This document shows, piece by piece, positions 1 through 42,557 of a stretch of 64,000 nucleotides of DNA (positions are counted from its first letter, which is position 1; every line of letters begins with the position of its first letter). The notes under the pieces are model-generated. The model did no database searches. It had not been told where the DNA came from and saw only the letters and a program-made list of their open reading frames with translations. The stretch comes from a virus, in IMG/VR virus record IMGVR_UViG_3300022699_000224, positions 1 to 64,000 of that record; one strand, 5' to 3'. The translations under genes and the position numbers were made by a program.

Positions 1-483
1 AATTTAAAATGGCAGTGTTATAAGTATAATGAAATAAATGAATTAAATAATAGATTAGAAAAAAATAATATTATATTAGGTAATGGAGTTGAGTTAGGTG
101 ATTATGTTATATTAGGTAATGGAGTTAGATTAGGTGATTATGTTATATTAGGTAATGATGTTAAGTTAGGTAATGGAGTTGAGTTAGGTAATGGAGTTGA
201 GTTAGGTAATGATGTTGAGTTAGGTGATTATGTTAGCTTAGGTAATAATGTTGAGTTAGGTAATGGAGTTAAGTTAAATAAAACTCCTCTGCAAATTCAA
301 GGTTCTAAGCACTTAATAACTGCTGTTAATAAAGATTATATTCAAATTGGTTGTAAAATATTATCAATAAAACAATGGGAAAAGTTAGGCAGGGTAATAG
401 CAAAAAAAGCAGGGTATAATGATAAGGAAATAAAAGAATATAAAAGATATATAAAAGTTACTGAACTGCTTTTAAGTAAATAG
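1..483 (+). CDS. Hexapeptide-repeat (left-handed beta-helix) protein, 5'-truncated by window edge
   Basis: Frame +1 is open from base 1 to TAG 481-483 (not in ORF track): ...LEKNNII(LGxxVx)x11 LNKTPLQIQGSKHLI...IQIGCKILSIKQWE...EIKEYKRYI. Confidence 0.85.
   Translation, partial: NLKWQCYKYNEINELNNRLEKNNIILGNGVELGDYVILGNGVRLGDYVILGNDVKLGNGVELGNGVELGNDVELGDYVSLGNNVELGNGVKLNKTPLQIQGSKHLITAVNKDYIQIGCKILSIKQWEKLGRVIAKKAGYNDKEIKEYKRYIKVTELLLSK
76..273 (+). repeat. 11 x 18-bp tandem repeat (ttaggt[a/g]atNNNgttNNN)
   Basis: Directly visible; encodes LG[ND]xVx hexapeptides. Confidence 0.95.
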
Positions 484-502
484 GGAGTAATAAGTTTCAA
501 AA

Positions 503-892
503 ATGATAGTCTATAAATGGGTTATAGAAAAAAATAATAAATTTTTTCCGATAATAAATAATGGAGCATTTAAGCTATTTAATAAGTTAAATTTAGGATA
601 TTATACTTTAGGAAAAACATATAAAAATTTTATTAATCCTTATTTATTATTAAAAGACAGTTATATACATACTAAAAGACAAAGGAGTTTTCATAGAACA
701 GGTTACCATTTTTGGATTAAAAAAAATAATAATGAAGAATTAAAAAGATATAATTTATGTATGAAACGTCAAACAGGAAAAAGAATTAATTGTATATTAA
801 CTTGTTATATAAGAAATAAAGATATAATTAAAATAAGTAACAATAGAGTAATAGCTAAAAAATTTAGAATACTTAAAAAAGAGTATATTTAA
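503..892 (+). CDS. Hypothetical protein
   Basis: ORF track, GGAG upstream. Confidence 0.6.
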   Translation: MIVYKWVIEKNNKFFPIINNGAFKLFNKLNLGYYTLGKTYKNFINPYLLLKDSYIHTKRQRSFHRTGYHFWIKKNNNEELKRYNLCMKRQTGKRINCILTCYIRNKDIIKISNNRVIAKKFRILKKEYI

Positions 893-905
893 AACAGGAT
901 TAAAA

Positions 906-1292
906 ATGTATAATAATGACTACGATATTAGTTGGGATTATGAATTAGATGATAAATTAAATAAAAATTTTATTACTCTTATTAACAAAGCAATTAAATG
1001 GATTAAAAAAGAAAAATTAAATTTAAGAATTAATTTTAATGTATTTCCTATTTTATTATCAAATAATCAATTAGGAATATATTGTAATGGAACTTATAAA
1101 AATGCAGTTATTGGTATTGATATAAGAAATATAATATCTGCTTGTAAAGAATATAGTATAGGTTTAAATTTAGCAATAAAGACTACAATATTACACGAAA
1201 TAAGGCATGCTTGGCAAGAAAGGAATAAATTAGAGTTTGATGAAATAGACGCAGAAGATTATGCTTACTATTCTTCACTTGACAAAGTTTGA
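906..1292 (+). CDS. Putative zincin metallopeptidase
   Basis: HEIRHAWQ (HExxH) followed by E..AE.YA. Confidence 0.65.
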   Translation: MYNNDYDISWDYELDDKLNKNFITLINKAIKWIKKEKLNLRINFNVFPILLSNNQLGIYCNGTYKNAVIGIDIRNIISACKEYSIGLNLAIKTTILHEIRHAWQERNKLEFDEIDAEDYAYYSSLDKV

Positions 1293-4245: not shown

Positions 4246-4573
4246 AAGACTAAAAAATAGAAGTATTAATTCTTTAAAGAATTTTATTTCTAAATCTCGC
4301 AAAAGAAAATTAAGCAAAAATAAACTTAATCTTATAAAAAACTTGATAAAAGAAAAGGAAAAATACAACAAATTATTAGCTAAAAAAATTATTAATTCTC
4401 CATTAGCTAAACTTGCAAAAATAAAAATAATAGCACAGAAAAAAATAAATATTAATAAAAAAATAAATGCAAGTGATTTATTATTAACTATGTGGCAAAT
4501 CATAATAGAAGCAGAAAAAAGTAAGCCAAAATATAAAAAATTAAAAGAATATATAGAGGATTATAATGATTAA
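4229..4573 (+). CDS. Hypothetical basic protein
   Basis: ORF track (start moved to ATG 4229 after AAGGAG). Confidence 0.55.
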   Translation: MTKLSERLKNRSINSLKNFISKSRKRKLSKNKLNLIKNLIKEKEKYNKLLAKKIINSPLAKLAKIKIIAQKKININKKINASDLLLTMWQIIIEAEKSKPKYKKLKEYIEDYND

Positions 4574-5357
4574 TGAATTTAAAGAGTATTTAATAATAAA
4601 TGGATATTCAAAATCTACTATTACAGATTATCTCTATCGTGTAAATATTTTATTAAAAGAAAACAAAATAGAAGATTTAAACGAAGAAAATATTAGAAAT
4701 TTTTTCTTTAAACTTAAAGACAAATATAATCCAATAACTATAAATCTTTTTAGAAGTGCTATTAAATTATTTTTAGAGTTTTTAGATAAGAATATAAGAC
4801 TTCCTAAAAGTATAAAAATAGAAGATAAATTACCAGATAGTATAGAAGAAAAATTTTTTAGAAAGAAAATAATTCCAACAGTTGAGAAATATTGCGATAA
4901 ACCTTTAAAAAACAAAGCAATACTATACTTTATGTTTTATACTGGAATAAGAGTAAGCGAATTTGAATTTATTTACAGAAAAAATATAGATTTTGAAAAA
5001 CGCAGAGTCAAAATATATATACCAAAAACAAAAGAAGAAAGAATTATACCATTTACAAAAGAAGTAGCAATTATTTTAAAAAGTTTTTTTATTACAGAAC
5101 CAGAAGATAAAAATGCTTTTAATATTACTAAAAGTGGTGTGCAAAGATTATGTGATAGACTAAAAAAATATTTTCCAGATATTAAATTGAGACCTCATCT
5201 ATTTAGACATTCTTATGCTACTATGATGTTAGAAAGAGGTTTAGACGTAAGCAAAGTAAGTAAATTGTTAGGACATAAAAATATAAATACTACTCTTAAA
5301 TATTTAAGATTAGATATAGATACTTTACAGAAAGGATATGATAAAGCATTTGAATAA
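4566..5357 (+). CDS. Tyrosine recombinase / integrase (XerC/D-like)
   Basis: TGIRVSE, K, HLFRHSYAT, LLGH, T..Y catalytic set; N-terminal SAM-like core-binding domain. Confidence 0.92.
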   Translation: MINEFKEYLIINGYSKSTITDYLYRVNILLKENKIEDLNEENIRNFFFKLKDKYNPITINLFRSAIKLFLEFLDKNIRLPKSIKIEDKLPDSIEEKFFRKKIIPTVEKYCDKPLKNKAILYFMFYTGIRVSEFEFIYRKNIDFEKRRVKIYIPKTKEERIIPFTKEVAIILKSFFITEPEDKNAFNITKSGVQRLCDRLKKYFPDIKLRPHLFRHSYATMMLERGLDVSKVSKLLGHKNINTTLKYLRLDIDTLQKGYDKAFE

Positions 5358-5678
5358 AATTAAAGGAGATAAAGTGATTTATAATTTATATTATTATTTA
5401 ATGTTAATAGGTTATTTAGGATTAGTCTTTTATGCAAATAATTTAAAAAATAAAATTATTGGTATATTATTATTAATAGTAAATGCATTAATATTTAAAA
5501 GATGAATAAAAATTTTTTCATAGAATTTATTAAGGATATTATAGGATTTTTTAAAGCATTGTGGTATGTTATTGCTTTTTCTATATTAAGAAATATTTTT
5601 ATTATATTATTTATTAGTGTGATATTTCTATTTATCAATATAGTATTTAATTAAAATAACAAATTAAAGGAGGGATAA

Positions 5679-5873
5679 ATGAAATATATTGAATACGGAA
5701 GAAGTAGGATTGAAGTAAAGCAAATTGAATTTAAGGATAGAAAATTTATTGATGTAAGAAAATATTATCCTGATAATGAAACAGATGAATGGAAACCTAC
5801 AAGAAAAGGTATTGCTATTCCATTAGACCAAGCTAATAAAATAGCTAATTTTATTAAAGAAGTTAATAAATAA
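5679..5873 (+). CDS. PC4/YdbC-like ssDNA-binding protein
   Basis: FIDVRKYY...WKPTRKGIAI signature. Confidence 0.85.
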   Translation: MKYIEYGRSRIEVKQIEFKDRKFIDVRKYYPDNETDEWKPTRKGIAIPLDQANKIANFIKEVNK

Positions 5874-23283: not shown

Positions 23284-23520
23284 ATGCTTACATATTTAAT
23301 CCCTAAAAATTGTCAAATAGTAAAACATGAATGTCCTATTTATCATGAAAAAGATTATTTATTGCAAAATTTATATTCATTAGATTTAGAAATGAAAATA
23401 GTAGAGGTAACTGTTAATAGCATTAGTTTAACTGAAGATGGAGAAATTATCAAATATAGTGTTTGTCCAAGATGCGAAACTAAATTTATTAGAAAATTAG
23501 GAGAAAAAATAAATGTCTAA
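23284..23520 (+). CDS. Hypothetical protein
   Basis: ORF track; CPRC. Confidence 0.55.
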   Translation: MLTYLIPKNCQIVKHECPIYHEKDYLLQNLYSLDLEMKIVEVTVNSISLTEDGEIIKYSVCPRCETKFIRKLGEKINV

Positions 23521-25735
23521 AAAAGATTTAAATGATAAATTATCTCAACTAGAAAAAAATTTTGGATTAAAAAGAGCTTCCTCTCAAAAAAATGTAGAAT
23601 TTATTAGGACTGGTATATATTCGTTAGATTATGTATTAGATGGAGGTTTACAATTAGTAGAAGGAGGTCATAAAATAGAATTTTATGGCAAAGAAAGTTC
23701 TGGTAAGACTACTTTTGCTCAAAAGGTGGTAGCTAAATATCAAAAATTAGATAAAGTATGCGTATGGGTAGTTTCAGAGAGTTTTCATAAAGATTGGGCT
23801 AAAAAATTAGGAGTAAATACTGATAAATTATTATTATCTTATCCTGATTCTGTTGAAGATGCTACAGAAACTATTTTAAAGATAGTGCCAGAAGTAGATT
23901 TAATTGTAGTAGATAGTGTTGCAAGTTTGATTCCTGAAGTTGAAATAGAAAAATCAATGCATGAACAAACTAGAGGAGTTCAAGCTAAGGCTTATTCTCA
24001 ATTTTGTCGTAAATTATATAAAAAAATACTTAATCAAAAAGTTTCGTTAATTTTTATTAATCAATTAAGAGAAAAGATGGGAGTGCTTTATGGCAATCCA
24101 GAAATTACTCCTTGTGGTAGAGCATTAAAACATATGTATGATTGTTTAGGAGCAGATACTATAATTTATAACGGTAAAAAATTTATACCTTTAAAATATT
24201 TAAAAAGTAAAGTAACAAGTTATAATTTTAAGCATAAAAAATTCCAAAATAATAAATTATTACAAAAAAAAGCACAAAAATTTAAAAATTATTTAGAATT
24301 AGATTTAGGTATAACAAGAATAGATGCTTCGGAAAATCATAAATTTTATAATATTTCTTCTGATGGAACTTTACAGTTAAAAAGAGTTAAAAATCTCAAG
24401 AAAGGAGATATGCTATTATTATCGAAAGGGAAAAATTTTAAAATTAAAAATCCTTCATTTACTGACAATAAATTTGTAAGATTATTAGGATATTATGTTG
24501 GAGATGGATATAAAATAAATAAAGAAAATCATATAATTATAGCGGATAAAAATAGAAATTTCTTAAAATATTATCAAGATTTACTTAAAGAAAAGAGCTT
24601 TAAAATTAATAAATCAAGAAACACTAATTTATTACACATTAAAACAAAATTTAGTAATCATTTATTTGAGACTATTAGACAATATAAATTAGATGTAAAA
24701 GCTTCCAAAAAAAAGTTACCCTTTCTTTTTTATAATTTTTCAGATAACTGTCTTAAAGATTTTATAGCGGGATTTTATGATGCAGAGGGAAATGATAATA
24801 CAAATTTACCTACATTTCATTCCTCATCCGAGAAATTGTTAAGAAATATTCAATTTATGCTTTGGAGATTAGGAATAAGGTCAAATATTAATAAAAGAAA
24901 ATCGCAATCTTTAAAAAAATTACGAAATGATAAAAAATACTATACAATGTATGCTTTGTATGTATCTGATTCAAAAAGTATTATTAAATTTAAACGAGTT
25001 ATACCCACATTGAAAAATATTAAACTACCAAAATATAATTCAAAAATGCAATATAATTTTGTAGAATTAATAAAGGAATATCATAATATATTATTAAAAC
25101 GAAAGGAAATATCAAGATATTTGGGAAGAAATAATTCATTACAGCATTTAATTAAACAAAAGACTATTTCTTTAGATAGATTAAAAAATATCTATAGTAA
25201 GACTAAAAATTTAAGTTTTTTAAATGAACAAAACACAAAATATGAGAGAATATTAAAATTAAAACAAAATTTCGATTTTGTAAAAATAAAAAAAATCACT
25301 AAAAAAGCAACAAATTTTAAATATTTAGGCTTTAAAAAGAAATTAATAGATATTCAAGTTGAAAATGATGAAAATTTTATAGCAAACGGTATATTGTCTC
25401 ATAACTCAAGAATTGAATTTAGAACTAAAAAACCTATTGAAGTTGGCACTAAAAATAAAAAAGAAAGAATTGGAACGGAAATTCATTTATATGCTAAAAA
25501 AAATAAATTAGGAAAACCTCAAAGAAAAATTATAACCGATTTTTATTTTGATGGAACTATTGATAATGCTAAATCGTTATTACATGCAGGAATTAAATAT
25601 GACGTTATAGATTTTAGTGGAAAAACATATAAATTTGAAGATGTTAAAGCGGTTGGTAAAGTTAATTTTATTGAAGCAATGACTGAAAAAGAATGGAAAA
25701 AAGTGGAAAAAGAAATATGGCGAAGAATAAAATAG
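23513..25735 (+). CDS. recA: RecA/UvsX recombinase, intein-containing
   Basis: TG..SLD..L.GG, GKESSGKTT, IVVDSVA, IFINQLREK.GV.YGNPE.TP.GRALKH. Confidence 0.93.
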   Translation: MSKKDLNDKLSQLEKNFGLKRASSQKNVEFIRTGIYSLDYVLDGGLQLVEGGHKIEFYGKESSGKTTFAQKVVAKYQKLDKVCVWVVSESFHKDWAKKLGVNTDKLLLSYPDSVEDATETILKIVPEVDLIVVDSVASLIPEVEIEKSMHEQTRGVQAKAYSQFCRKLYKKILNQKVSLIFINQLREKMGVLYGNPEITPCGRALKHMYDCLGADTIIYNGKKFIPLKYLKSKVTSYNFKHKKFQNNKLLQKKAQKFKNYLELDLGITRIDASENHKFYNISSDGTLQLKRVKNLKKGDMLLLSKGKNFKIKNPSFTDNKFVRLLGYYVGDGYKINKENHIIIADKNRNFLKYYQDLLKEKSFKINKSRNTNLLHIKTKFSNHLFETIRQYKLDVKASKKKLPFLFYNFSDNCLKDFIAGFYDAEGNDNTNLPTFHSSSEKLLRNIQFMLWRLGIRSNINKRKSQSLKKLRNDKKYYTMYALYVSDSKSIIKFKRVIPTLKNIKLPKYNSKMQYNFVELIKEYHNILLKRKEISRYLGRNNSLQHLIKQKTISLDRLKNIYSKTKNLSFLNEQNTKYERILKLKQNFDFVKIKKITKKATNFKYLGFKKKLIDIQVENDENFIANGILSHNSRIEFRTKKPIEVGTKNKKERIGTEIHLYAKKNKLGKPQRKIITDFYFDGTIDNAKSLLHAGIKYDVIDFSGKTYKFEDVKAVGKVNFIEAMTEKEWKKVEKEIWRRIK
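24143..25405 (+). mobile_element. Intein (421 aa) with LAGLIDADG homing endonuclease in RecA
   Basis: MYD|CLGADT...SENH...LLGYYVGDG...FIAGFYDAEG...DIQV...NFIANGILSHN|S. Confidence 0.93.
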
Positions 25736-26016
25736 AAAGAAAATTAATTTGCGAATGCGGATATGTAGTTAATAATAAGAAAGAATATTTTAATCATTTA
25801 GAAAAATGCGGATTAAAACTAAATAGGAAATTAAAGGACAAAGAGGAAAAGAATAAAATGAGAATTACAATAGAATCGTTAGATAATAAAAGAAAAGCGA
25901 TTATTGAAACTCATGAATATATAGATATTTATGAAATAGCAGAGGAGTTACGAGGTTTATTAATTGCTTGGGGTTATCATTCTAATACTGTTAAAGAAAT
26001 ATTACCAGAGGAATAA
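25717..26016 (+). CDS. Hypothetical protein with C2HC zinc finger
   Basis: CECG...H...C. Confidence 0.55.
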   Translation: MAKNKIERKLICECGYVVNNKKEYFNHLEKCGLKLNRKLKDKEEKNKMRITIESLDNKRKAIIETHEYIDIYEIAEELRGLLIAWGYHSNTVKEILPEE

Positions 26017-26017
26017 T

Positions 26018-26929
26018 ATGCAATCTCTTCCAAAATATACAAAAATATTAACTCTTGGGTCAGCTTATACCCAAAATGCTTTAAAAGGAGAAATTATTAT
26101 ACAAGAAAAAGTTGATGGTAGTCAATTTCGTTTTGGAATAAATAAGAATAAAGAATTAGTTATAGGAACTCATAGAACTATAGTAACTTGTCCAGAAGAA
26201 AATAAAATGTTTGCAAAAGGTATTAAATATGTGCAAAGCATTGAAAAAATTTTAAAATCATTTCCAGTAAATACATATTTTTTTGGCGAATATTTAAAAA
26301 CATCTAAACATAATATATTAGAATATGATAGAATTCCTAATAATCATATCATATTATTTGATATTTTCTCCAACAATAAATGGATAACAAAAAGACAAGA
26401 ATTATTAAATTATGCTAATAAATTAAATTTAGAAATAGTGCCAGAATTATATAAAGGAATTATTAATTTAGAAAATTTAAAAAAGTTATTAAATACTTCA
26501 AGTTGTTTAGGAAAAGAATTAGTTGAGGGAATAGTAATTAAGAATTATAATCAAACTATATTATTAGGTGGTAAAGTATTTCCATTATTTACTAAATATG
26601 TAAGAGATAAATTTAAAGAAAGACATAATACTCAATGGAAGAAACAATCTAAAAAGAATTCAATAGAAAAGTTTATTCATAGTTTTAATACTAAAGCTAG
26701 ATGGAATAAAGCATTACAATACTTGAAAGAAAATAATCAATTAGAAAATAAACCTAGAGATATAGGAAAGCTAATTAAAAGAGTTAAAGATGATATTATA
26801 GAAGAAGAAACTGAAAATATTAAAGATTTTTTGTTTAAAAAATTCAGTTGTGATATTTTACGTAAATCTACTTATGGATTACCTGAATGGTATAAAAATA
26901 AGTTATTGGAAAATATAAAGGGAGAATAA
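26018..26929 (+). CDS. RNA ligase (Rnl2-like nucleotidyltransferase)
   Basis: QEKVDGS, FFGE, FDI, VP.LY.G, EGIVIK, KYV...FKE. Confidence 0.85.
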   Translation: MQSLPKYTKILTLGSAYTQNALKGEIIIQEKVDGSQFRFGINKNKELVIGTHRTIVTCPEENKMFAKGIKYVQSIEKILKSFPVNTYFFGEYLKTSKHNILEYDRIPNNHIILFDIFSNNKWITKRQELLNYANKLNLEIVPELYKGIINLENLKKLLNTSSCLGKELVEGIVIKNYNQTILLGGKVFPLFTKYVRDKFKERHNTQWKKQSKKNSIEKFIHSFNTKARWNKALQYLKENNQLENKPRDIGKLIKRVKDDIIEEETENIKDFLFKKFSCDILRKSTYGLPEWYKNKLLENIKGE

Positions 26930-29225: not shown

Positions 29226-29714
29226 ATGGATTCTAGACATCTTATTATTTTAGTTGGAAATATAGGAACAGGTAAAACTACACTAGTTAAAAAATATCAA
29301 AAAAAGGGATATGTAGTTATTGCTAGAGACCAATTACGATATACTATAGGTAATGGAGAATATATTTTTAATCATAATTATGAACCTATTATTTGGGATT
29401 CCGAATTATATATGTTTGAAAGATTTATAGAATTAGGCGTTGATGTTATAATTGATGAAGTAGGATTAAATAAAAAAATGAGAAATAGATATATTTCTAA
29501 AGCAAAATATTACAATTATTTTATAACTGTTATAGTATTTCCAAAATTAACTATGAAAGAATCTGTTGATAGAAGATTAAATAATCCACATGGACAACCT
29601 GATAGAAATTTATGGGAAAGAGTATGGAAAAATTTTGATGAAATATATGAAGAACCTACTAAAGATGAAGGTATTGATGAAATTATAAGGTTAAAAAGGG
29701 AGGATGTTATATGA
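29226..29714 (+). CDS. P-loop kinase (polynucleotide-kinase-like)
   Basis: GNIGTGKTT, RD.LR, VIID, EEP...EG. Confidence 0.8.
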   Translation: MDSRHLIILVGNIGTGKTTLVKKYQKKGYVVIARDQLRYTIGNGEYIFNHNYEPIIWDSELYMFERFIELGVDVIIDEVGLNKKMRNRYISKAKYYNYFITVIVFPKLTMKESVDRRLNNPHGQPDRNLWERVWKNFDEIYEEPTKDEGIDEIIRLKREDVI

Positions 29715-29949: not shown

Positions 29950-30609
29950 ATGTATTTAATAAAAAGAGTTTTAGAATGGAATAAAGATAATAATGGTTGG
30001 AGTATTTGTCCTAATGATAATTCTATTAAAATTAAAATAGGCGATGAAGTAAATGTTAGCCCACGTGCTGTAATAGATAAAGAAGCTATAATTGGAAACA
30101 GAGTTATAATTGGAGATGATACAGAAATAGGCGATACTACATATATAGATGATGATGTTGAAATTGGTAATAATGTTGATATTGGCTCTGATGTAATAAT
30201 TAGCAGTCATACTAAAATTGGTAATCAAGTTATAATTGGTAGTATGACTCAAATGGGTTTTTATACTAAAATTGGCAATCAAGTTACCATAGGCAAATGC
30301 ACAGGATTAGGATTAGGAACTACTATAGGCGATGGAACTAAAATAAGCAGTGGGGTAAATCTATATGCAGGAATTGAAATTGGAGATAATGCTAAGATTT
30401 TAAAAACTCCTTTACAAATTCAAGGTTCTAAAGATTTGGTTATATATGCTGAAGATTTAATTCAGATAGGTATGGATAGTAATAATAGAATGAGTATAAA
30501 AGAATGGGAAGAAAAAGCAGATAATATATTAAAAAAATGTAATTATACTTCAAAACAGATAAAAGAATATAAACAATATTTAAATTTTATAAAAGGATTT
30601 AATAAGTAA
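29950..30609 (+). CDS. Hexapeptide-repeat (LbH) protein
   Basis: IGxxVx repeats; C-terminus KTPLQIQGSK...IQIG...SIKEW...Y...QIKEYK.Y shared with ORF 1-483. Confidence 0.85.
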   Translation: MYLIKRVLEWNKDNNGWSICPNDNSIKIKIGDEVNVSPRAVIDKEAIIGNRVIIGDDTEIGDTTYIDDDVEIGNNVDIGSDVIISSHTKIGNQVIIGSMTQMGFYTKIGNQVTIGKCTGLGLGTTIGDGTKISSGVNLYAGIEIGDNAKILKTPLQIQGSKDLVIYAEDLIQIGMDSNNRMSIKEWEEKADNILKKCNYTSKQIKEYKQYLNFIKGFNK

Positions 30610-30625
30610 AATAGGAGGTATATTT

Positions 30626-30823
30626 ATGGGTGATGTTATTAGAGCAACTGCAATAAATTATTTAAACTTTTTTAAAAAAGCATATAAGAAATATAAAGCA
30701 ACTGATAAGGATACTCGTATGAAAACCGCTTTAAATAGGATAGAGAAATTTATTAAAAAACAACCTACAATAGAAAATTTTATGCGAGAAGAAATAAAGA
30801 AAATTAAAAATGAAATTAATTAA
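30626..30823 (+). CDS. Hypothetical protein
   Basis: ORF with AGGAGGT RBS. Confidence 0.55.
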   Translation: MGDVIRATAINYLNFFKKAYKKYKATDKDTRMKTALNRIEKFIKKQPTIENFMREEIKKIKNEIN

Positions 30824-33800
30824 TATACATAGTAATGGAAGAACTATATATTTATTTTGGAGAGATAACGAAAATAAATTACATGTAAAACGTAAAAAAG
30901 ATTTTTTTCCTTATTATTATGAAATATCTCCAAATGAAGAAGGGAAATATAAAGGATATGATAATTCTCCATTGAAAAAAATATATGTATCTAAACCAAA
31001 CGAAGTCAGAAAATTAAGAAGCTCTAACGCATATGAGGCAGATATAATATTTACTAAACGATTCTTAATAGATAAAATAGATAAAATAGAGCCTTGTCCT
31101 ATAAAAATTGCTTATATAGATATAGAAGTTAAAGCTCCTGAATTTCCTAATCCTGATAACGCACAATATCCAGTTTCATGTATTAGCGTCGGTAACTCTT
31201 TTAAAAAAGAAATTAAAACTTTTTGGATAAAAAATTTTGATACTGAATTTGATTTAATAGAAACATTTATAAAATATATGAGAAAAGAAAAGTATGACCT
31301 TTTTTGTAGTTGGCATGTAGATTTTGATTATAATTATTTATATAATCGTTATCCTGATTTTGCAAAAAAACTTAGTCCAATAAATGAAACTAGATATGGT
31401 AACGATAAAGTCTTATATCCTGCTGGAATATCTATTATAGATTATTTAAGCTGGTTTAAAGCATTTACAAGAAATAAATATAGAGTATATAGTTTAGACG
31501 CAGTTGCTCAAAAAGATTTACAAGAAAAAACATGGGGTAATACTGATTTTGATTCTTTAAATGATGAAATTAAAAAAAAGAATATTAATGATGTTAAAAG
31601 AATGATTAAATTGGAAAATAAATATAATATAGTTTCATTATTTGATGAAATTCGTAGATTTTCTAAAGTAGAATGGGAAGATTTAGGAACTTATAATTCT
31701 AGAGTTATAGATATGTTAGTATTACAAGAAGCAAAAAATCAAAAAATAGTTTTACCTATGAAACCAAGAGATAAGATAAAAGAAGAATTCGAAGGAGCAT
31801 ATAGAGATACTTATGAAACAGGTAGATTTTTTAATGTAGGCAAATATGATTTAAGCGGTGCTTATATGTATGCTATTATAGATTTAGCTTTAGATTCTGC
31901 TAATATTAAAGAAAATTCTAATAATAATACTATACCTGTTAATATTACAGATAGAAAAACTCATAAAATTTTGAATACGTATAATGTAGAACAAAATAAA
32001 AACGGTATATTACCATTAGTAGCAAAAAAATTAATTGATGAAAAGAATAAATTAAAAAAAGAACGAGCTTTATTAGACCCTAATTCAGAAGAATATAAAA
32101 TATTAGATAAACGATATGATGCTTTAAAGGTTATAGTGCTTAGTTGTTGGGGAGTTATAGGTAATCAGTATTTCAGATTATTTGATTCTAGAGTAGCAGG
32201 GATGATTACTTCTGTAGTTAGAAGTCTTATTTGGTATGTAGATGATAAATTGAAAGAATTAGGATATAAAGTCTTATATGTTGATACAGATGGGTTAATA
32301 ATAGATGATAAAGGGGAAACTATTACAGATTTATTAAATGATTTAATAACTAAATGGGCTAAAGAAAAATTTAATAAAAAGGTATCTATAAGATTTGATT
32401 GTGAAGGACATTTTGAGAAATTATATATTGCTACTAAATGCAGATATAAAGGTTATTTAAAAACAGATACAGGTATTAAAGAAGAAACTAAAGGATTAGA
32501 AATTAAAAGAAAGGACTCAACTAAGTATATACAGAAATTTCAGGATAAATTGATTGATAAAATTTTAAATAAAGAATCAGAAGAAATAGTTATTAAATGG
32601 ATTAATAACAAAATTAATAATTTTAAAAATAATAAATTAACTGATATTGCATTTCCTTGTAAATTATCTAGGAAACCTAATGATTATAAAAATATTCCTA
32701 TATTTTTAAGAGCATTAAATAATACTGAAAATTTTAATAAAAAAGTAGGGGAATTATATTATTATATTTATGTTAAGCCTAATAAAGAGAGAAAACGTAA
32801 AACAATTATAAAAGTAAAAGAAAAAGAAAATATAATATTAAATAAAGATTTATCTAGAAAGGAAGGTATAGTATACGCAAGAAAAACTTATGAGAATTCT
32901 AATTTGAAAACATCAGATATAAGTGTATTACATAAAAGAGAAAAAGCTAAAGATGTAGTAGCATTTGATAAAGATAACTATGACCATATAAATAAAGAAG
33001 ATATTGATTGGAAAAAAATGATTGATAGAAATATAATGATGAAAATAGATTCTATATTTAAATCTATGAAATGGGATATAAAAAAATTAAATTTTGCGGA
33101 GGAAGTGTCGAAAGAGACACATCGAAATACCATTTCGAAAAGTAAGGTGCAAGTCCTTAACTCCGCTCCAAAATCTAATAATAAAAAATATCCTAATGAT
33201 TATCCAATAGAAAAAGGTAAAACTTTATCTAAAGAAGAATTAAAAAAATTAAATTTAAAGTGTAAACCAAAAATAAAAAATAGAGATAAAATAGAAGAAT
33301 TTTTAAAAATAAATAATAATAAACAAATAAAAGCATTAAAAAATAATTTTAATCCTGAACCTTATATAGAAGAATATAATTTAGATTTTCAATGGGTTAG
33401 TTTCATTAATACTATTAGTTCTACTATGTTTAAAAATAGACCTGGAAGAAGTATTAAATTATTAGTAAAAGATAAAAATTATGATTTTATATATGGAATT
33501 ATTTCTTTAAGTAGTCCTATGATTAATAAAAAAATTAATAAATACTTTAAAGATAATAATAAAATGCCTAAAGTAGATTTTAATTTTATAAATAGACATA
33601 TTATAGATATAAATGTATGTGTAGGAACAGGAATATTAACTAAATATTTAACAGGTAAATTGTTAACATATATTGCATTATCCGAAGAAATTAAAAATAT
33701 GTGGGATAAAAAATATAATACTGATATAAAATATATAATGACTACTTCTATTTATGGAAAATCATCTATTTATAATAGAATTAAATCATTTAAATTTTTA

Positions 33801-34109
33801 GGATTATCTGAAGGTTGGAATGTAACTTTTACTCAAAAACAAATAGATTGGTTAAAAAAAGAACATAAAAAACTATATCCTCATCATAAACTTTCAATTT
33901 CAGGAAAATCGTCTCATTTGTTCCGTAGATGGAATCAAGTTTGGAGAAAATACCATGATAAAATGCCATTTTTTCCTTATAAATTAAGAAGAGGAACTTA
34001 TTTATTTGATATTAATAAAACTCCTTTTTTAAGTATAAAAGATAATATAAAATATTGGAAAAAAAGATGGTATTATCCTAGAAAGGAAAGATTAAAGAAT
34101 GAAAAATAA
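30810..34109 (+). CDS. Family-B DNA polymerase fused to C-terminal DUF4338/DruA-like (Mom/GNAT-like) domain
   Basis: Exo YIDIE, FDYNYL; Pol EGAY, YDLSGAY, K...LS.WG, YVDTDG, KGLE.KR.D; after about aa 850 RPGRSIKLLVKD...GIISLSS...GKLL...TTSIYGKSSIYNR...FLGLSEG. Confidence 0.9.
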   Translation: MKLINIHSNGRTIYLFWRDNENKLHVKRKKDFFPYYYEISPNEEGKYKGYDNSPLKKIYVSKPNEVRKLRSSNAYEADIIFTKRFLIDKIDKIEPCPIKIAYIDIEVKAPEFPNPDNAQYPVSCISVGNSFKKEIKTFWIKNFDTEFDLIETFIKYMRKEKYDLFCSWHVDFDYNYLYNRYPDFAKKLSPINETRYGNDKVLYPAGISIIDYLSWFKAFTRNKYRVYSLDAVAQKDLQEKTWGNTDFDSLNDEIKKKNINDVKRMIKLENKYNIVSLFDEIRRFSKVEWEDLGTYNSRVIDMLVLQEAKNQKIVLPMKPRDKIKEEFEGAYRDTYETGRFFNVGKYDLSGAYMYAIIDLALDSANIKENSNNNTIPVNITDRKTHKILNTYNVEQNKNGILPLVAKKLIDEKNKLKKERALLDPNSEEYKILDKRYDALKVIVLSCWGVIGNQYFRLFDSRVAGMITSVVRSLIWYVDDKLKELGYKVLYVDTDGLIIDDKGETITDLLNDLITKWAKEKFNKKVSIRFDCEGHFEKLYIATKCRYKGYLKTDTGIKEETKGLEIKRKDSTKYIQKFQDKLIDKILNKESEEIVIKWINNKINNFKNNKLTDIAFPCKLSRKPNDYKNIPIFLRALNNTENFNKKVGELYYYIYVKPNKERKRKTIIKVKEKENIILNKDLSRKEGIVYARKTYENSNLKTSDISVLHKREKAKDVVAFDKDNYDHINKEDIDWKKMIDRNIMMKIDSIFKSMKWDIKKLNFAEEVSKETHRNTISKSKVQVLNSAPKSNNKKYPNDYPIEKGKTLSKEELKKLNLKCKPKIKNRDKIEEFLKINNNKQIKALKNNFNPEPYIEEYNLDFQWVSFINTISSTMFKNRPGRSIKLLVKDKNYDFIYGIISLSSPMINKKINKYFKDNNKMPKVDFNFINRHIIDINVCVGTGILTKYLTGKLLTYIALSEEIKNMWDKKYNTDIKYIMTTSIYGKSSIYNRIKSFKFLGLSEGWNVTFTQKQIDWLKKEHKKLYPHHKLSISGKSSHLFRRWNQVWRKYHDKMPFFPYKLRRGTYLFDINKTPFLSIKDNIKYWKKRWYYPRKERLKNEK
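33096..33170 (+). tRNA. tRNA-Gly(ACC)-like element embedded in frame in the polymerase gene; probably non-proteinogenic
   Basis: GCGGAGG AA GTGTC-GAAAGA-GACAC A TCGAA-ATACCAT-TTCGA AAAG TAAGG-TGCAAGT-CCTTA ACTCCGC T CCA. Confidence 0.85.
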
Positions 34110-34311
34110 ATGTAAGTGTAAAAAACCAGATAGAGTAATAAGTATTCTTAATGGAATAGGTTTTAAATGTGCAAAGTGTAATAAGTGGATAAAAATATTT
34201 CATAAAAAGTTTCATAAACCTACTAAAATAAGAAAATCTAAGAAGAAATATAATAGAAGAAAAGCAAAAAAGAAATTAAGACAAAAATTAAGAGAGGAGG
34301 ATATTTCATGA
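34099..34311 (+). CDS. Small basic protein, Zn-ribbon plus ArfA-like basic tail
   Basis: CKC...CAKC; FHKPTKIRKSKKKYNRRK. Confidence 0.55.
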   Translation: MKNKCKCKKPDRVISILNGIGFKCAKCNKWIKIFHKKFHKPTKIRKSKKKYNRRKAKKKLRQKLREEDIS

Positions 34312-34451
34312 TTTATTTGATTATATTAGCAATGTTAATATTAGTTGCTTTTATTGCAGGTATGTTTGTTCAAAGAAATAATTATATTCTAAAACCAAAA
34401 AAACCTAAAGATATGCATTATGGTAAAATTAATAACTAGGAGGTGAGGTAA

Positions 34452-34691
34452 ATGATTAAAGGTCAAGATTTAAATATTGAACTTAAAAAATTAGATTTAA
34501 AAATCAGTAAATCTAGCATTACCAATTCTGATGTAGTTAAAGCTATAACTTTACTTATTAAATTAGCTAGAGATATTAGACAAAATCAAGTTTTGATGAT
34601 GAAAGAGAGGGGTATAGATTTGATAAAGCCTCCAAAAGAAAAAAGAGATAAAGATAATACAGAACCTACTAAATCAGATACTAAAAAATAA
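34452..34691 (+). CDS. Hypothetical protein
   Basis: ORF, GGAGGTGAGGT RBS. Confidence 0.6.
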   Translation: MIKGQDLNIELKKLDLKISKSSITNSDVVKAITLLIKLARDIRQNQVLMMKERGIDLIKPPKEKRDKDNTEPTKSDTKK

Positions 34692-34699
34692 TTAATTTC

Positions 34700-34774
34700 G
34701 GGGCTTGTGGTTTAATAGCCTGATAACTTACTAGGGATTCCTGGTGAGAAATTGTAGATTAACTACCAAGCCCC
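34700..34774 (+). ncRNA. Candidate structured RNA/DNA element (nested stem-loop)
   Basis: GGGGCTTG/CAAGCCCC closing stem; inner hairpin 34727-34748. Confidence 0.45.
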
Positions 34775-34789
34775 TTTACGGAGTAAGAG

Positions 34790-35224
34790 ATGAAATTAGA
34801 ACAGCAAGTATGTAGTTTAGAATTAGCCAAGAAACTTAAAGAGTTAGGAGTTAAGCAAGAGAGTTTGTTTTATTGGCAGAGATATACAGAAAAAAAGACA
34901 GGTATTGAAGAATGGGATTTAGCCCTAAGAGGTAAACATACAAGAGATAACGCTTGGAGTTGTTTAACAGGTAATTACCACGATGGGAGACAATGGATAA
35001 GTCATTGGGTAGAAAAAGATGAGGAATACTCCGCCTTCACAGTTGCAGAGCTTGGGGAGATGTTGCCTAAGGGAACTCAATCATATCATACTTCGTTTGA
35101 CTGGTGTTTAACAAATCCTAAATGGGCAACTTCTTATATACAACCAAATTCAACCTTTCTAACATATACCGACACCGAAGCCAACGCCAGAGCCAAGATG
35201 CTTATATATTTAATTGAGGAATAA
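34790..35224 (+). CDS. Conserved phage hypothetical protein (higher GC)
   Basis: LE.QV.SLELAKKLKELGVKQES.FYW...SAFTVAELGEMLP...TEANARAKMLIYL. Confidence 0.75.
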   Translation: MKLEQQVCSLELAKKLKELGVKQESLFYWQRYTEKKTGIEEWDLALRGKHTRDNAWSCLTGNYHDGRQWISHWVEKDEEYSAFTVAELGEMLPKGTQSYHTSFDWCLTNPKWATSYIQPNSTFLTYTDTEANARAKMLIYLIEE

Positions 35225-40313: not shown

Positions 40314-41795
40314 ATGAATAATAAATATAAAAAAATATTGAATCCCTTTATAAGTTCTCTACAATACGTTTTAAATGATGATAATATAGATGTTTATAAG
40401 AACGAACAATATATTAAAGATAGTTTAGCTAATGGAAAAATTTGGGATATTAGTCATTCAGAAGATAATGATTTTAAAAGAATAATACAAATTTTTCATC
40501 AAACTACCCAATTAGAGAATAGTCTTGATTTTGATTTGGGAGATGAAAATTTATTCGTGCAAGAAAACGAAGATAAAACTGAATTTACTAATCAAGGTGA
40601 ATTACAATTACAATTTTCTCCTTGGGCATCAACTTATGCAGGTTGGCACTTAAATGAATCATCTGGAAATATAGCATATGATTTTTCTGATAACGAAAGA
40701 AATGCAATTACTGTAAATAATCCTTTATGGATAGAAGGTAAATTAAATAATTGTTTACAATTTAATGGAATTAATCAATATGTAAATTGTGGAGATATAG
40801 CTAATTTTGATTATGATGAATCATTTAGTTTAGAATGTTGGTTTAAAACTAAAAGTAAAAATCAAATTATACTTAGTCGTATGGATAATAATTTAGTAAG
40901 AGGATGGCAATTAGTGCTTCATAAATCTACTTCGATTTATTTTGGATTATATCATACAACAGTCCCTACAAATGCTTTAGTTGTTTATACTGATTCTACA
41001 GGTTGGAATGATGATGAATGGCATCATATAATTATGACTTATGATGGAACTAATAGTCCTTCTGGAATTTGTATTTATATAGATAGAGAAAAACAATCTT
41101 TGATTACATATGGTAATACTTTAACAAGTTCTATAAAAAACCCTGCTAATTGTCAAATTTCAGGAAGAGATGGAGATACTCTTCTTTGGAAAGGAAATAT
41201 AGATGAAACTATTATTTATGATAAAACATTAACTGTTGATGAAGTAGCAAATAGATGGAATTCAGGACAAGGAATTGAATTAACAGGATATGATATTTCT
41301 CAAGGTTGGTATGTTCATACTAATGAAAATCAAATAGATACTTCATTATGGAAAAATATAATCAATATAGGATTTACAGAAACTAAACCAACTGAAACAG
41401 AAATAAGATATTATATATCAACTGATAATAGAAATACTTGGAAATATTGGGATAATGACCATTGGAAGAGTGAAAATAATTTAGATAATATAGATATACT
41501 AGGCAATAGTTCAAGTGAATTAGAATCTTTAAATGAAAATAATTGGATAGATATTGGTTTAACAGATACCTTTGATATTGCTATGAGTTTAAAGACTATA
41601 AATGCAGAAAATACTCCTAGTTTAAGTCAAATTGATATTGCGTATAGATTTCCAGGTAAAATTAAATGTAAAGATTCTCAAATAAGAATAGAATTAATTT
41701 CCCCAACTCTTACTAGAATTACTAATATTTCAGGTGTATTAACTAGTCCTTTAACAGATTTAAGAGCAAATATATTAATTGAAAAAAAATTATAA
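40314..41795 (+). CDS. LamG/concanavalin-A-like domain protein (probable virion protein)
   Basis: W.LNE.SG..AYD.S, FSLECWFK, WHHI..TYDG, G.IDE..IYD..L. Confidence 0.8.
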   Translation: MNNKYKKILNPFISSLQYVLNDDNIDVYKNEQYIKDSLANGKIWDISHSEDNDFKRIIQIFHQTTQLENSLDFDLGDENLFVQENEDKTEFTNQGELQLQFSPWASTYAGWHLNESSGNIAYDFSDNERNAITVNNPLWIEGKLNNCLQFNGINQYVNCGDIANFDYDESFSLECWFKTKSKNQIILSRMDNNLVRGWQLVLHKSTSIYFGLYHTTVPTNALVVYTDSTGWNDDEWHHIIMTYDGTNSPSGICIYIDREKQSLITYGNTLTSSIKNPANCQISGRDGDTLLWKGNIDETIIYDKTLTVDEVANRWNSGQGIELTGYDISQGWYVHTNENQIDTSLWKNIINIGFTETKPTETEIRYYISTDNRNTWKYWDNDHWKSENNLDNIDILGNSSSELESLNENNWIDIGLTDTFDIAMSLKTINAENTPSLSQIDIAYRFPGKIKCKDSQIRIELISPTLTRITNISGVLTSPLTDLRANILIEKKL

Positions 41796-41806
41796 CTTAA
41801 CTAATT

Positions 41807-42547
41807 ATGAAATCAATAAGAAAAATAAGTGTAAAAACAGTAGCTTTAAAAACTATTATATATAGAATTTTTATAATTTTAGTGCAAGCATTTTTTACTT
41901 TTCTTTATATTAAAAATTTTTCTAAAGCATTAAATATAAGTATAGGATGGAATGTAATTAATATAGGATTATATTTTATTTATGAATATTTATTTGCTAA
42001 AAAGTGGGATATGACTATTCAAACTAAAGGAGCTGTTATATGGTTAACAGGTTTGCCTTGTAGCGGTAAGACTACTATAGGTAATAAATTAGCTACTATA
42101 TTAAAAAGAAAAGGATTAAATGTAGAAAGACTTGATGGAGACATAGTAAGAAAAGGTAAATTAAGTGATGATTTAGGATTTTCTAAAGAAGATAGAGATA
42201 AAAATATTAATAGAATTACATTTGTAAGTAAATTATTATCTAGAAATAAAACAATAGTAATAGCATCTTTTGTTTCCCCCTATATATATACACGAAATAA
42301 TATAAGAAATAATGTTACAAATTTTATAGAAGTTTATGTAAAAGCTTCATCTGAAATATGTGCTAAAAGAGATGTAAAAGGAATGTGGGCTAAAGCAAAA
42401 AAAGGAATAATAAAAGGATTTACAGGATATGATGACCCTTATCAAAAGCCTAATAATCCAGAAATTATATGTAATACCGAAAAAGAAAATTTAAGTAATA
42501 GTGTTAATAAAATATTAGTCTATTTAGAGAATAAAAAAATTATATAG
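41807..42547 (+). CDS. cysC: Adenylylsulfate (APS) kinase with N-terminal membrane domain
   Basis: IWLTGLPCSGKTT, LDGD.VR, LGFSKEDR..N..R, FVSPY, RDVKG, FTG.DDPY..P. Confidence 0.93.
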   Translation: MKSIRKISVKTVALKTIIYRIFIILVQAFFTFLYIKNFSKALNISIGWNVINIGLYFIYEYLFAKKWDMTIQTKGAVIWLTGLPCSGKTTIGNKLATILKRKGLNVERLDGDIVRKGKLSDDLGFSKEDRDKNINRITFVSKLLSRNKTIVIASFVSPYIYTRNNIRNNVTNFIEVYVKASSEICAKRDVKGMWAKAKKGIIKGFTGYDDPYQKPNNPEIICNTEKENLSNSVNKILVYLENKKII

Positions 42548-42557
42548 GAGACTGAAT

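Follow-up and report, generated by a model that had tools for sequence, protein, structure and literature searches.

A DruA-like GNAT domain and a conserved tRNA-Gly-like element at the 3' end of a phage DNA polymerase gene

In the window, the whole stretch of 64,000 nucleotides that was analysed, one open reading frame runs from a family B DNA polymerase (PolB) through a tRNA-like cloverleaf into a domain related to DruA, and the question is whether these parts belong together and what they might do. An earlier note on this DNA had taken them for a self-contained system that modifies DNA with glycine from a tRNA. The module is real, and this first reading is supported in part. With moderate confidence we regard the locus as a two-part phage module on the 3' end of PolB, consisting of a GNAT of the DruA family and a dedicated glycine-tRNA look-alike, that would function in glycyl transfer. 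The features are the following.

30810–34109, + strand: single ORF of 1099 aa with an ATG start, PolB followed by the tRNA-like stretch and the DruA-like module
30810–33095, + strand: family B DNA polymerase part, 762 aa (PF00136, phrog_262)
33080–33086, + strand: A7 run, in-frame A_AAA_AAA, 9 nt 5' of the cloverleaf (read from the sequence)
33096–33170, + strand: 75-nt tRNA-Gly-like cloverleaf, anticodon ACC, encoded CCA end (folding, relaxed ARAGORN, covariation)
33171–34109, + strand: DruA/DUF4338-like module, 312 aa and stop, N-terminal helices and then a GNAT core (PF14236, AlphaFold)
about 33345–34028, + strand: GNAT core, model residues 59–286 (AlphaFold model)

The open reading frame and its polymerase part

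The PolB part is full-length, with matches to PF00136 (E 1e-25, aa 359–668) and to phrog_262 (E 5.5e-69, aa 5–760 on profile positions 12–844 of 856), and the exonuclease and polymerase motifs DIE and YVDTDG can be read in the ORF. By the extent of the phrog_262 match the polymerase has its natural end just before the tRNA-like element, where the earlier note had placed it, and the frame is open through that element with the translation given there.

PF00136 and PF14236 are joined in one protein in the window record only, among four long DruA-like matches (604–1924 aa), and the relatives of the module are stand-alone proteins of about 300–360 aa. The replication coupling suggested in the earlier note would rest on this fusion. 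At three other loci (L034, L036 and L037) PolB is encoded on its own (PF03104, PF00136), its stop is a single base 5' of a tRNA-Gly, and a DruA-like gene follows 0.9 kb downstream; the PolB of L036 is 24% identical to that of the window. The A7 run may be slippery or prone to sequencing errors, and removal of one A gives a PolB stop four codons 5' of the tRNA-like stretch, but since A runs of at least 7 are common in the genome (143 in 89.5 kb, 1.6 per kb) its location near the cloverleaf may be due to chance. It is a serious possibility, though one we lean slightly against, that the fusion arose through an error in assembly or sequencing, or because the PolB stop was recently lost by neutral change, and that the true state is three adjacent genes as in L036. 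Against this, a separate DruA-like protein must still begin within the tRNA-like stretch or 5' of it, because in-frame ATG, GTG and TTG codons are absent from 33148–33425 and the next ATG is 3' of codons for invariant residues; in two other loci, P0002 and L094, the ORF has its start at such a position as well. In the present sequence, translation of the enzyme requires either a PolB fusion product or initiation within this stretch or 5' of it.

The tRNA-Gly-like element

Both a stable fold and conservation confirm that the cloverleaf at 33096–33170, claimed in the earlier note, is a tRNA-Gly-like RNA. Its minimum free energy is -26.0 kcal/mol (z -4.60, with none of 200 shuffled sequences equally stable), and its GC content is 46.7% compared to 24.8% for the genome, placing it in the top 0.047% of 75-nt windows. 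ARAGORN with default settings reports no tRNAs in the window or in the whole 89,485-bp genome, and an Rfam search of the region 30000–35000 returns no tRNA at E≤10, while ARAGORN with -ps80 predicts tRNA-Gly(acc) at exactly 33096–33170 as one of 30 low-score calls. The element is the sole tRNA-like gene of the complete 89-kb genome. A canonical tRNA core has U8, G18-G19 and U55 in the T-loop, whereas this one has A8, a D-loop GAAAGA without GG, and a T-loop UGCAAGU with G at position 55. The anticodon loop is regular with 7 nt, U33 and A37, and GGT constitutes 39.8% of the glycine codons in genome ORFs of at least 150 aa, and the window copy could therefore still serve in ordinary decoding; A34 is unusual in tRNA-Gly of bacterial type. 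G1-C72, C2-G71, G3-C70, U73, C35 and C36, which we take to be the glycine identity elements of bacterial glycyl-tRNA synthetase (GlyRS), are all present together with the CCA end.

The element of locus L094, which was left out when the RNA model R1 was built, scores 62.3 bits (E 1.3e-12) against R1. It differs from the window element at 19 of 75 positions, including seven double compensatory pair changes and one wobble but no broken pair, and the DruA-like proteins beside the two elements are 32% identical. In an alignment of ten members 99.0% of the cells are paired and 15 of the 21 pairs vary on both sides, which none of 500 shuffles matches. Judged from these comparisons the 75-nt cloverleaf is a real, conserved RNA. 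The pairs G1-C72, C2-G71 and G3-C70 are kept in all ten members, and the encoded CCA end and the discriminator are also conserved, but some relatives have an anticodon loop of 6 or 8 nt, two members have G33, and A8 occurs in eight of ten; glycine identity positions are thus kept across the family while decoding positions are variable.

The DruA-like module and its linkage to tRNA-Gly genes

As proposed earlier, the C-terminal domain belongs to DruA/DUF4338. The 312-aa module scores 33.2 bits with PF14236 (31.8 in the whole ORF, gathering cut-off 27), E 1.2e-21 with phrog_19197 and 28.6 bits with the PADLOC DruA1 model; PF14236 is present in 15 of 19 relatives, and all 11 invariant columns of the family alignment are found in the window module. 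The AlphaFold model (pLDDT 91.1, pTM 0.88) has a GNAT fold and its fold matches are all GNATs. Among 48,161 chains 83 have Z of at least 8, and the best 50 of these 83 are GNAT-type acyltransferases or GNAT-like domains of larger proteins, with a top Z of 10.2; the best Foldseek rows are also GNATs (best E 1.1e-3). What had been described as a Lys/Asn-rich linker is instead the conserved N-terminal helices of the module, with pLDDT of at least 90 from residue 11. The conserved glycine-rich loop with the invariant G162-K163 should be located at the CoA-pyrophosphate site of GNATs, as inferred from an hhalign layout. In PMC10853773, DUF4338 is called a GNAT and found fused to DndF.

To our knowledge Mom of bacteriophage Mu is the sole enzyme so far shown to modify DNA with a charged tRNA. 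In agreement with the earlier note, PMC13219725 describes how Mom transfers glycine from Gly-tRNAGly onto adenine N6 in double-stranded DNA. The likeness of the module to Mom rests on general GNAT motifs, with no specific support from PF25680, hhalign or the structural Z. PF25680 (Mom) has no match in the window module at E≤1, and Mu Mom itself scores 253 bits; the hhalign probability is 1.2% against Mom and 0.3% against four Mom-like sequences. The Mom structure (8bv8_B) is found at rank 4 of the 48,161 chains (Z 9.8, rmsd 3.3, 159 aligned), within 1 Z of the top chain and of many acetyltransferases, and is tied with plain acetyl-CoA enzymes. A low-confidence hhalign layout has the catalytic R111 of Mom beside the nearly invariant N141, and S124 near G162-K163. 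Both proteins are phage-encoded with a GNAT fold, and from the alignments both have a late helical insertion followed by an RG(V/T)Y strand. Unlike Mom, the module carries additional helices at its N-terminus and is fused to PolB, and there is no sequence-profile relation. The link to tRNA-Gly is biochemical for Mom, according to PMC13219725, but genomic for the module, and Mom uses host tRNA whereas a dedicated non-canonical tRNA-Gly-like gene travels along with the module; no tRNA-Gly-like RNA is found in the three Mom-like phage loci sampled.

The earlier note implied that DruA homologues co-occur with Gly-tRNA-like elements, and such linkage is found by R1 in 16 of the 80 best viral DruA-like loci and in 8 of 80 metagenome loci (E≤1.4e-5, all + strand). 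ARAGORN with default settings finds 15 tRNAs in the viral set, namely 13 tRNA-Gly and two Gly-like ones whose loop has 6 nt; each shares its strand with the DruA-like gene, and no other isotype occurs among them. The RNA abuts or sits within the DruA-like ORF in 10 of about 15 distinct groups (inside the ORF in the window, L094, P0002 and L012), and other lineages have it 3' of the enzyme gene or at a distance of 0.6 to 5 kb. Among 42 cellular DruA-like loci used as control there is one R1 match, 4 kb off, and the tRNAs found there are those for Pro, Leu and Gly; the further control of 46 other viral loci (480 kb) has neither an R1 match below E 6.9e-4 nor a DruA-like gene. No tRNA-like gene is found in the flanks of 64 of the 80 viral and 72 of the 80 metagenome loci, some of them on short contigs, and these loci include those of all 11 closest relatives (40–55% identity). 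These counts support a specific linkage of phage DruA-like genes to tRNA-Gly(-like) genes, and no paper on DruA with a dedicated tRNA-Gly module was found in the literature.

The genes around the module in the window encode RecA, PolB, Mre11-like and Rad50-like proteins, with an AAA_33 kinase, a hexapeptide transferase and MazG as further neighbours, and none of DruB to DruE is found among seven neighbours scanned with PADLOC. In three T4-like loci a gp46-type SMC ATPase is encoded immediately upstream, and PolB is present on the same strand within the flank of 16 of 160 DruA-like loci.

Proposed working, alternatives and significance

In the preferred reading the 75-nt element would be excised from the transcript as a tRNA-sized RNA with its encoded CCA, and it counts against this step that excision from the ORF destroys the enzyme message. 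The host glycyl-tRNA synthetase should charge the RNA, as the presumed glycine identity positions are kept; the genome has no detectable GlyRS-type class II aminoacyl-tRNA synthetase core domain or CCA-adding enzyme domain, and the system is thus not self-contained as had been claimed. The altered core (A8, no G18-G19, G55) may keep the RNA off the ribosome, by analogy with staphylococci, in which transferases of the FemX/FemA/FemB type are served by non-proteinogenic tRNA-Gly that can be charged but avoids the ribosome through changes in the D-loop and the T-arm. The DruA-like domain would then move the glycyl group to an acceptor, as suggested by the exclusive genomic linkage and the precedents of Mom and Fem; it counts against this step that the donor could be an acyl-CoA, given the tie of Mom with acetyl-CoA enzymes and the tRNA-acetylating toxins among the best Foldseek rows. 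The weakest step is the last one, that the acceptor is probably DNA, which is indicated by the presence of the module in replication and recombination gene blocks and by its fusion to the replicase here.

As generally described, Fem also combines a GNAT-fold aminoacyl transferase with a special tRNA-Gly, but Fem builds peptidoglycan bridges in cells, while the pair here is phage-borne, among replication genes, with the RNA inside or against the enzyme ORF. Plant virus tRNA-like structures are likewise chargeable tRNA mimics embedded in a viral protein-coding transcript, but they are 3'-terminal in RNA genomes without a linked transferase, and the one here is a full cloverleaf internal to an ORF of a DNA phage.

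Among the alternatives for the module itself, it is unlikely that the GNAT acts on RNA and halts translation by acetylation of Gly-tRNAGly in the manner of TacT and AtaT, with the look-alike as substrate mimic, decoy or RNA antidote. In favour of it, GmvT, AtaT and TacT are among the best Foldseek rows, TacT as a structure solved with acetyl-glycyl-tRNAGly, GNATs that use acetyl-CoA share the highest Z values, and the inferred position of G162-K163 would suit the binding of CoA. In addition, a non-decoding RNA on the same strand beside the enzyme gene resembles RNA-antitoxin layouts. TacT, AtaT and GmvT are however tRNA-acetylating toxins of about 160 aa that use acetyl-CoA and have protein antitoxins, whereas the module is twice as long, has extra helical parts and a linked RNA, and is located in replication and recombination blocks of lytic-type phages and not in toxin-antitoxin pairs; furthermore, conservation of the glycine identity positions and the encoded CCA suggests that the RNA must be charged, which a pure decoy need not be.

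We consider it very unlikely that the cloverleaf acts in cis in the mRNA and is never freed, as a translational operator recognised by the tRNA-binding enzyme, an RNase P site splitting PolB and DruA messages, or a stimulator of -1 frameshifting. The elements lying within ORFs agree with such a role, and the heptamer, the 9-nt spacer and the stable structure form a classical frameshift layout in which slippage on A_AAA_AAA may set the ratio of PolB to PolB-DruA, the -1 frame ending at the stop at 33143–33145. The frequency of A runs speaks against this, a cis element does not need a conserved CCA and discriminator, and the lineages with the RNA at a distance from or after the enzyme gene fit a trans-acting product. 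That the element is an ordinary phage tRNA-Gly reading GGU beside a GNAT gene of unrelated function is likewise very unlikely, for although the regular anticodon loop and the GGT usage would allow it and several linked tRNAs elsewhere are canonical enough for default ARAGORN, it is the only such gene of its genome and is missed by ARAGORN default and Rfam, the linked isotype is glycine on the same strand in 15 of 15 cases, and the irregular loops and G33 of relatives and the unusual A34 do not fit.

The two-part module for glycyl transfer thus remains the preferred reading, as a system carrying its own glycine donor, possibly for DNA modification. It would provide a second GNAT family, unrelated in sequence to Mom, with its own glycine-tRNA look-alike, and a handle on both DruA and Mom; the predicted donor is the Gly-charged mimic, and the short RNA and the 312-aa domain can be expressed and assayed. 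That the target may be DNA is indicated by the polymerase fusion and by a second lineage in which PolB adjoins a tRNA. The elements also represent a class of phage tRNA-like genes that are missed by standard tRNA finders and can sit inside protein-coding frames.

Type I Druantia has DruA as its signature protein, for which no published function was found. DruA belongs to the same Pfam family (PF14236) as the module, which is also matched by the PADLOC DruA1 models, but in Druantia it is part of an operon with DruB to DruE in a defence island, whereas the module is phage-borne without these neighbours, and cellular DruA-like loci, unlike the phage module, lack an adjacent tRNA-Gly-like gene. 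In a more speculative version, which we hold to be improbable, the ORF is a replicase-modifier fusion doubling as a cofactor gene, where the chargeable but non-decoding mimic is cut from some transcripts and others are translated into PolB-DruA that places glycine onto nascent DNA at the fork. If this were true, the DruA of type I Druantia would by extension mark DNA in dependence on an aminoacyl-tRNA, with the phage proteins serving as mimics of it or as counter-measures.

The PolB–tRNA–DruA reading frame and its surroundings

The source virus record is complete, with 89,485 bp, direct terminal repeats and a GC content of 24.8%, and the window constitutes its first 64 kb. A single ORF of 1099 aa at 30810..34109 on the plus strand spans a family B DNA polymerase (PolB), a tRNA-like stretch and a third domain, as the earlier note had described, and is found among the following features.

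23513-25735, plus strand: RecA gene split by an intein, which contains a homing endonuclease domain of the LAGLIDADG type (PF00154, PF14890, PF14528)
25964-26929, plus strand: RNA ligase (PF09414), a few kb upstream of the PolB–tRNA–DruA ORF
29226-29714, plus strand: AAA_33 P-loop kinase, upstream of the same ORF
29950-30609, plus strand: left-handed beta-helix hexapeptide transferase (PF00132, E 6e-20)
Residues 1-762 of the ORF, plus strand: family B DNA polymerase (PF00136, E 1e-25; phrog_262, E 5.5e-69)
33096-33170, plus strand: cloverleaf between both parts, 25 codons (by folding, -26.0 kcal/mol)
Residues 788-1099 of the ORF, plus strand: DruA/DUF4338-like module of 312 aa (PF14236, score 33.2 bits, cut-off 27)
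40314-43826, plus strand: Laminin_G_3 (concanavalin-like) protein and UDP-glucose/GDP-mannose dehydrogenase, downstream

The match to phrog_262 runs from aa 5 to 760 and covers positions 12-844 of the 856-position profile; the natural C-terminus of the polymerase is therefore at about 33095. The assignment of the C-terminal domain to the DUF4338/DruA type holds, with PF14236 above its cut-off, and the module also matches phrog_19197 and PADLOC DruA1. No in-frame ATG, GTG or TTG is present between 33148 and 33425 of the window and the next ATG is located past invariant residues, so that translation of the DruA-like module must begin ahead of the RNA or within it; the ORFs of two relatives, protein P0002 and locus L094, likewise begin upstream of or inside the RNA. 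A promoter and terminator scan of the junction region found no terminators and 10 promoter-like sites where 9.1 are expected, and is therefore not used as evidence.

The wider context in the window is replication and recombination, with the intein-containing RecA, RNA ligase, P-loop kinase, PolB, Mre11-like and Rad50-like proteins and MazG. Among the relatives, a gp46-type ATPase is encoded upstream in three T4-like loci, and NrdD upstream in the closest long relative contig. In 16 of 160 loci the flank contains PolB, encoded on the same strand. The RNA ligase and the AAA_33 kinase may be an RNA/tRNA repair pair; alternatively, they may act in processing of the tRNA-like RNA. The block contains a second gene of the acyltransferase type, the hexapeptide transferase immediately upstream of the polymerase, and the downstream sugar-nucleotide metabolism genes could have a connection to glycosylation, either of surfaces or of DNA.

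The embedded cloverleaf and its association with DruA-like genes

With default settings ARAGORN reports no tRNA in the window or in the whole genome, and Rfam gives no tRNA match at E<=10 for the cloverleaf region; relaxed to 80%, ARAGORN calls a tRNA-Gly(acc) at exactly 33096-33170, but among 30 noise calls. The stretch has a folding z-score of -4.60, with none of 200 shuffles equally stable, and its GC content of 46.7% is in the top 0.047% of the 75-nt windows of the genome. A covariance model (R1) was built from this element and five tRNA-Gly genes beside DruA-like genes, and an element left out of the building, L094:143-217, scores 62.3 bits (E 1.3e-12) with it. The two elements have in common A8-A9, a D-arm GUGUC-GAAA-N-AGACA, the T-loop GGUGCAAGUCC and the ending GCUCCA, and differ at 19 of 75 positions, 15 of these in stems, where seven pairs have double compensatory changes, one pair goes from G-C to G-U and none is broken. 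The adjoining DruA-like proteins show only 32% identity. In an alignment of ten members 99.0% of the cells are paired and 15 of the 21 pairs vary on both sides, and shuffles and slid registers all fall far short of the observed pairing and covariation. The comparative evidence thus bears out the tRNA cloverleaf proposed within the ORF as a real RNA, despite the misses of the standard tools. The reading of the element as an attP integration site was rejected, as a whole divergent cloverleaf is present that covaries and accompanies DruA-like genes in different lineages.

Exact and near-exact searches of the viral contig collection gave no match to the RNA of the window. When the tRNA-encoded peptide was searched for in other proteins the sole match was P0002 itself, and from a peptide identical to that of L094 we infer that P0002 embeds a tRNA-like stretch.

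Gly-tRNA-like elements beside DruA-like genes, which the earlier note had wanted searched for, are present in some of the relatives. The best 80 of 143 viral relatives, retrieved with an alignment of the module and its relatives, were searched, and R1 matches in 16 of these loci. ARAGORN with default settings finds 15 tRNAs in the same loci, all in the same orientation as the DruA-like gene, namely 13 tRNA-Gly and two "undetermined" with a 6-nt TTCCAT loop, and no other isotype. From the metagenome, 80 of 124 relatives were kept, and R1 matches eight of them at E<=1.4e-5, all on the plus strand; default ARAGORN calls one of these eight and one tRNA-Pro. A simple acceptor-stem scan recovered the same RNA set as R1. 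When near-identical loci are merged, about 15 distinct groups remain, and in 10 of these the RNA touches or lies within the DruA-like frame, with a distance of 0.6 to 5 kb in the others. The arrangements are as follows.

RNA at the 5' end of the DruA-like frame: the window; L094 (ORF 41..1108, RNA 143-217); L012 (ORF 4572..5819, RNA 4662-4737); L040
RNA at the 3' end of the DruA-like frame: L103, L106, L102, L104, L108, L047
L040:3567-6110: canonical-looking tRNA-Gly(UCC) between two DruA paralogues of 376 aa and ~430 aa, with gaps of ~22-25 nt
L108:4747-7022 and L109: two strong and one weak tRNA-Gly-like copies after the DruA-like ORF, the first inside the ORF end

As cellular controls, 42 DruA-like loci (mostly MAG, 349 kb) contain three tRNAs (Pro, Leu and Gly), and the sole R1 match is a canonical tRNA-Gly 4 kb away. 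A looser T-loop and acceptor pattern gave 46 other viral loci (480 kb), a rough background only, which are mostly tRNA-Ser genes (21 of 23 ARAGORN calls), have no DruA-like gene and show one weak R1 match, with none below E 6.9e-4. Counting against linkage, no such RNA is found in the flanks of 64 of the 80 viral and 72 of the 80 metagenome DruA-like loci. It is likewise missing from the flanks of all 11 closest relatives (L083-L093, 40-55% identity). A search for miniature tRNAs in the gaps that follow the DruA-like genes in L013, L045 and L060 found none. On balance the RNA and the DruA-like enzyme are probably functional partners.

The element of the window has G1-C72, C2-G71, G3-C70, U73, C35 and C36, which we take to be the bacterial glycine identity set, and an encoded CCA. 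The three acceptor pairs are invariant in all ten family members, and C35-C36-A37 is kept. Positions of importance to the ribosome and to the tRNA core, by contrast, are variable: position 8 is A in eight of the ten, the D-loop is without GG and position 55 is a G. Deviating anticodon arms are found in the following tRNA-Gly-like genes.

L102:1841-1913 and L021:10248-10322: 6-nt anticodon loop
L106:918-993: 8-nt anticodon loop
L047:2571-2646 and L103:1076-1150: G33

From their sequences these five genes look unfit to decode, and the RNAs of L103 and L104 have no encoded CCA. Such a pattern would be expected of an RNA that needs glycine charging but not decoding. Non-proteinogenic tRNA-Gly serve Fem transferases, and these are likewise charged with glycine with no need to decode. 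Decoding by the copy of the window is also conceivable, as its anticodon loop is regular and 39.8% of the glycine codons in the genome are GGT. No second R1 match is present elsewhere in the genome, and neither a GlyRS-type class II aaRS core domain nor a domain of a CCA-adding enzyme was found in it. The host would thus have to provide charging, so that the system is not self-contained, contrary to what had been proposed.

Fold of the module and comparison with Mom

A model of the DruA-like module from a 27-sequence alignment has a pLDDT of 91.1 and a pTM of 0.88. Foldseek gives weak matches only, nearly all to GNATs (best E 1.1e-3) and including the tRNA-acetylating toxins GmvT, AtaT and TacT, and in an exhaustive structural scan the matches are GNAT-type folds, with Z reaching 10.2. 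Mom of phage Mu (8bv8_B) is in fourth place (Z 9.8, rmsd 3.3, 159 aligned residues), which amounts to a tie. The module has no PF25680 match at E<=1, with Mu Mom itself at 253 bits, and hhalign of the module gives a probability of 1.2% against Mom and 0.3% against four Mom-like sequences. The expected GNAT fold is thus found, but Mom ties with other GNATs and there is no relation at the sequence level; the IY..F..LG segment that had been read as Mom-like is a general GNAT motif before the last strands. In both Mom and the DruA-like family a helical insertion occurs late in the fold and an RG(V/T)Y strand comes after it, which is a hint only. The invariant residues of the DruA-like family, G92, G162, K163, Y182, T191, T192, S193, Y195, G196, Y201 and G211, are all present in the window.

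On the Mom side 43 close Mu relatives were retrieved, and the R1 scan covered three diverse Mom-like phage loci (L249-L251), where no match below E 0.1 was obtained with filters off and no tRNA fold is found in the intergenic stretches after the Mom-like genes. The 3' part of the Mom-like ORF in Vibrio phage EniLVp02 (L250:4276-4328) contains a weak 53-nt hairpin (R1 E 0.34, z -2.3) with a Gly-like acceptor stem, GCGG...CCGCACCA end, and an ACCA end.

Mom moves glycine from Gly-tRNAGly onto adenine N6 in dsDNA (PMC13219725), and that article contains no occurrence of DruA, Druantia or DUF4338. DUF4338 has been called a GNAT, with fusions to DndF noted (PMC10853773), and DruA-like proteins are described in Synechococcus phages (preprint 10.1101/2025.08.05.668817). 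The literature searched on DUF4338, DruA, Mom and glycyl-tRNA, tRNA-dependent DNA modification and non-proteinogenic phage tRNA gave no link between DruA and a tRNA.

The polymerase fusion and its possible role

In a collection of 5.8 billion proteins, four of 604-1924 aa match the DruA-like part, and PF00136 is also present in only one of them, the protein of the window itself, which makes the fusion unique. Three long DruA proteins (P0022-P0024) have no further Pfam domain and are therefore uninformative on the target. A run of seven A at 33080-33086 (in frame A_AAA_AAA) is located 9 nt before the cloverleaf; with one A fewer the polymerase would end four codons before the RNA, and the -1 frame after the run closes at the TAA at 33143-33145. 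Runs of at least seven A are common, with 143 in the genome. The heptamer, the 9-nt spacer and the stable structure together have the classical layout of a -1 frameshift site, which may be due to chance. We lean slightly towards the fusion being real.

In three relatives' loci (L034, L036 and L037) a separate PolB (PF03104, PF00136), 24% identical to that of the window, stops one base before a tRNA-Gly, and the DruA-like gene is found 0.9 kb downstream of this junction. This arrangement, and the lack of an in-frame start between 33148 and 33425 in the window, argue that the PolB–tRNA–DruA neighbourhood is meaningful even if the fusion is not real. In L036 a near-consensus promoter-like site, TTGACA-17-TATATT, was seen by eye right after the junction and before the next genes (L036:3884-3945), which suggests that the polymerase transcript ends with the tRNA.

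The best reading is that of a GNAT transferase module that would depend on a glycine-tRNA mimic and would be attached to the replicase. It is moderately probable that the RNA is the glycyl donor, and DNA would be the favoured acceptor, with a probability that we put below even. A full-size cloverleaf within an ORF and a fusion to the polymerase would be the new elements of this system.
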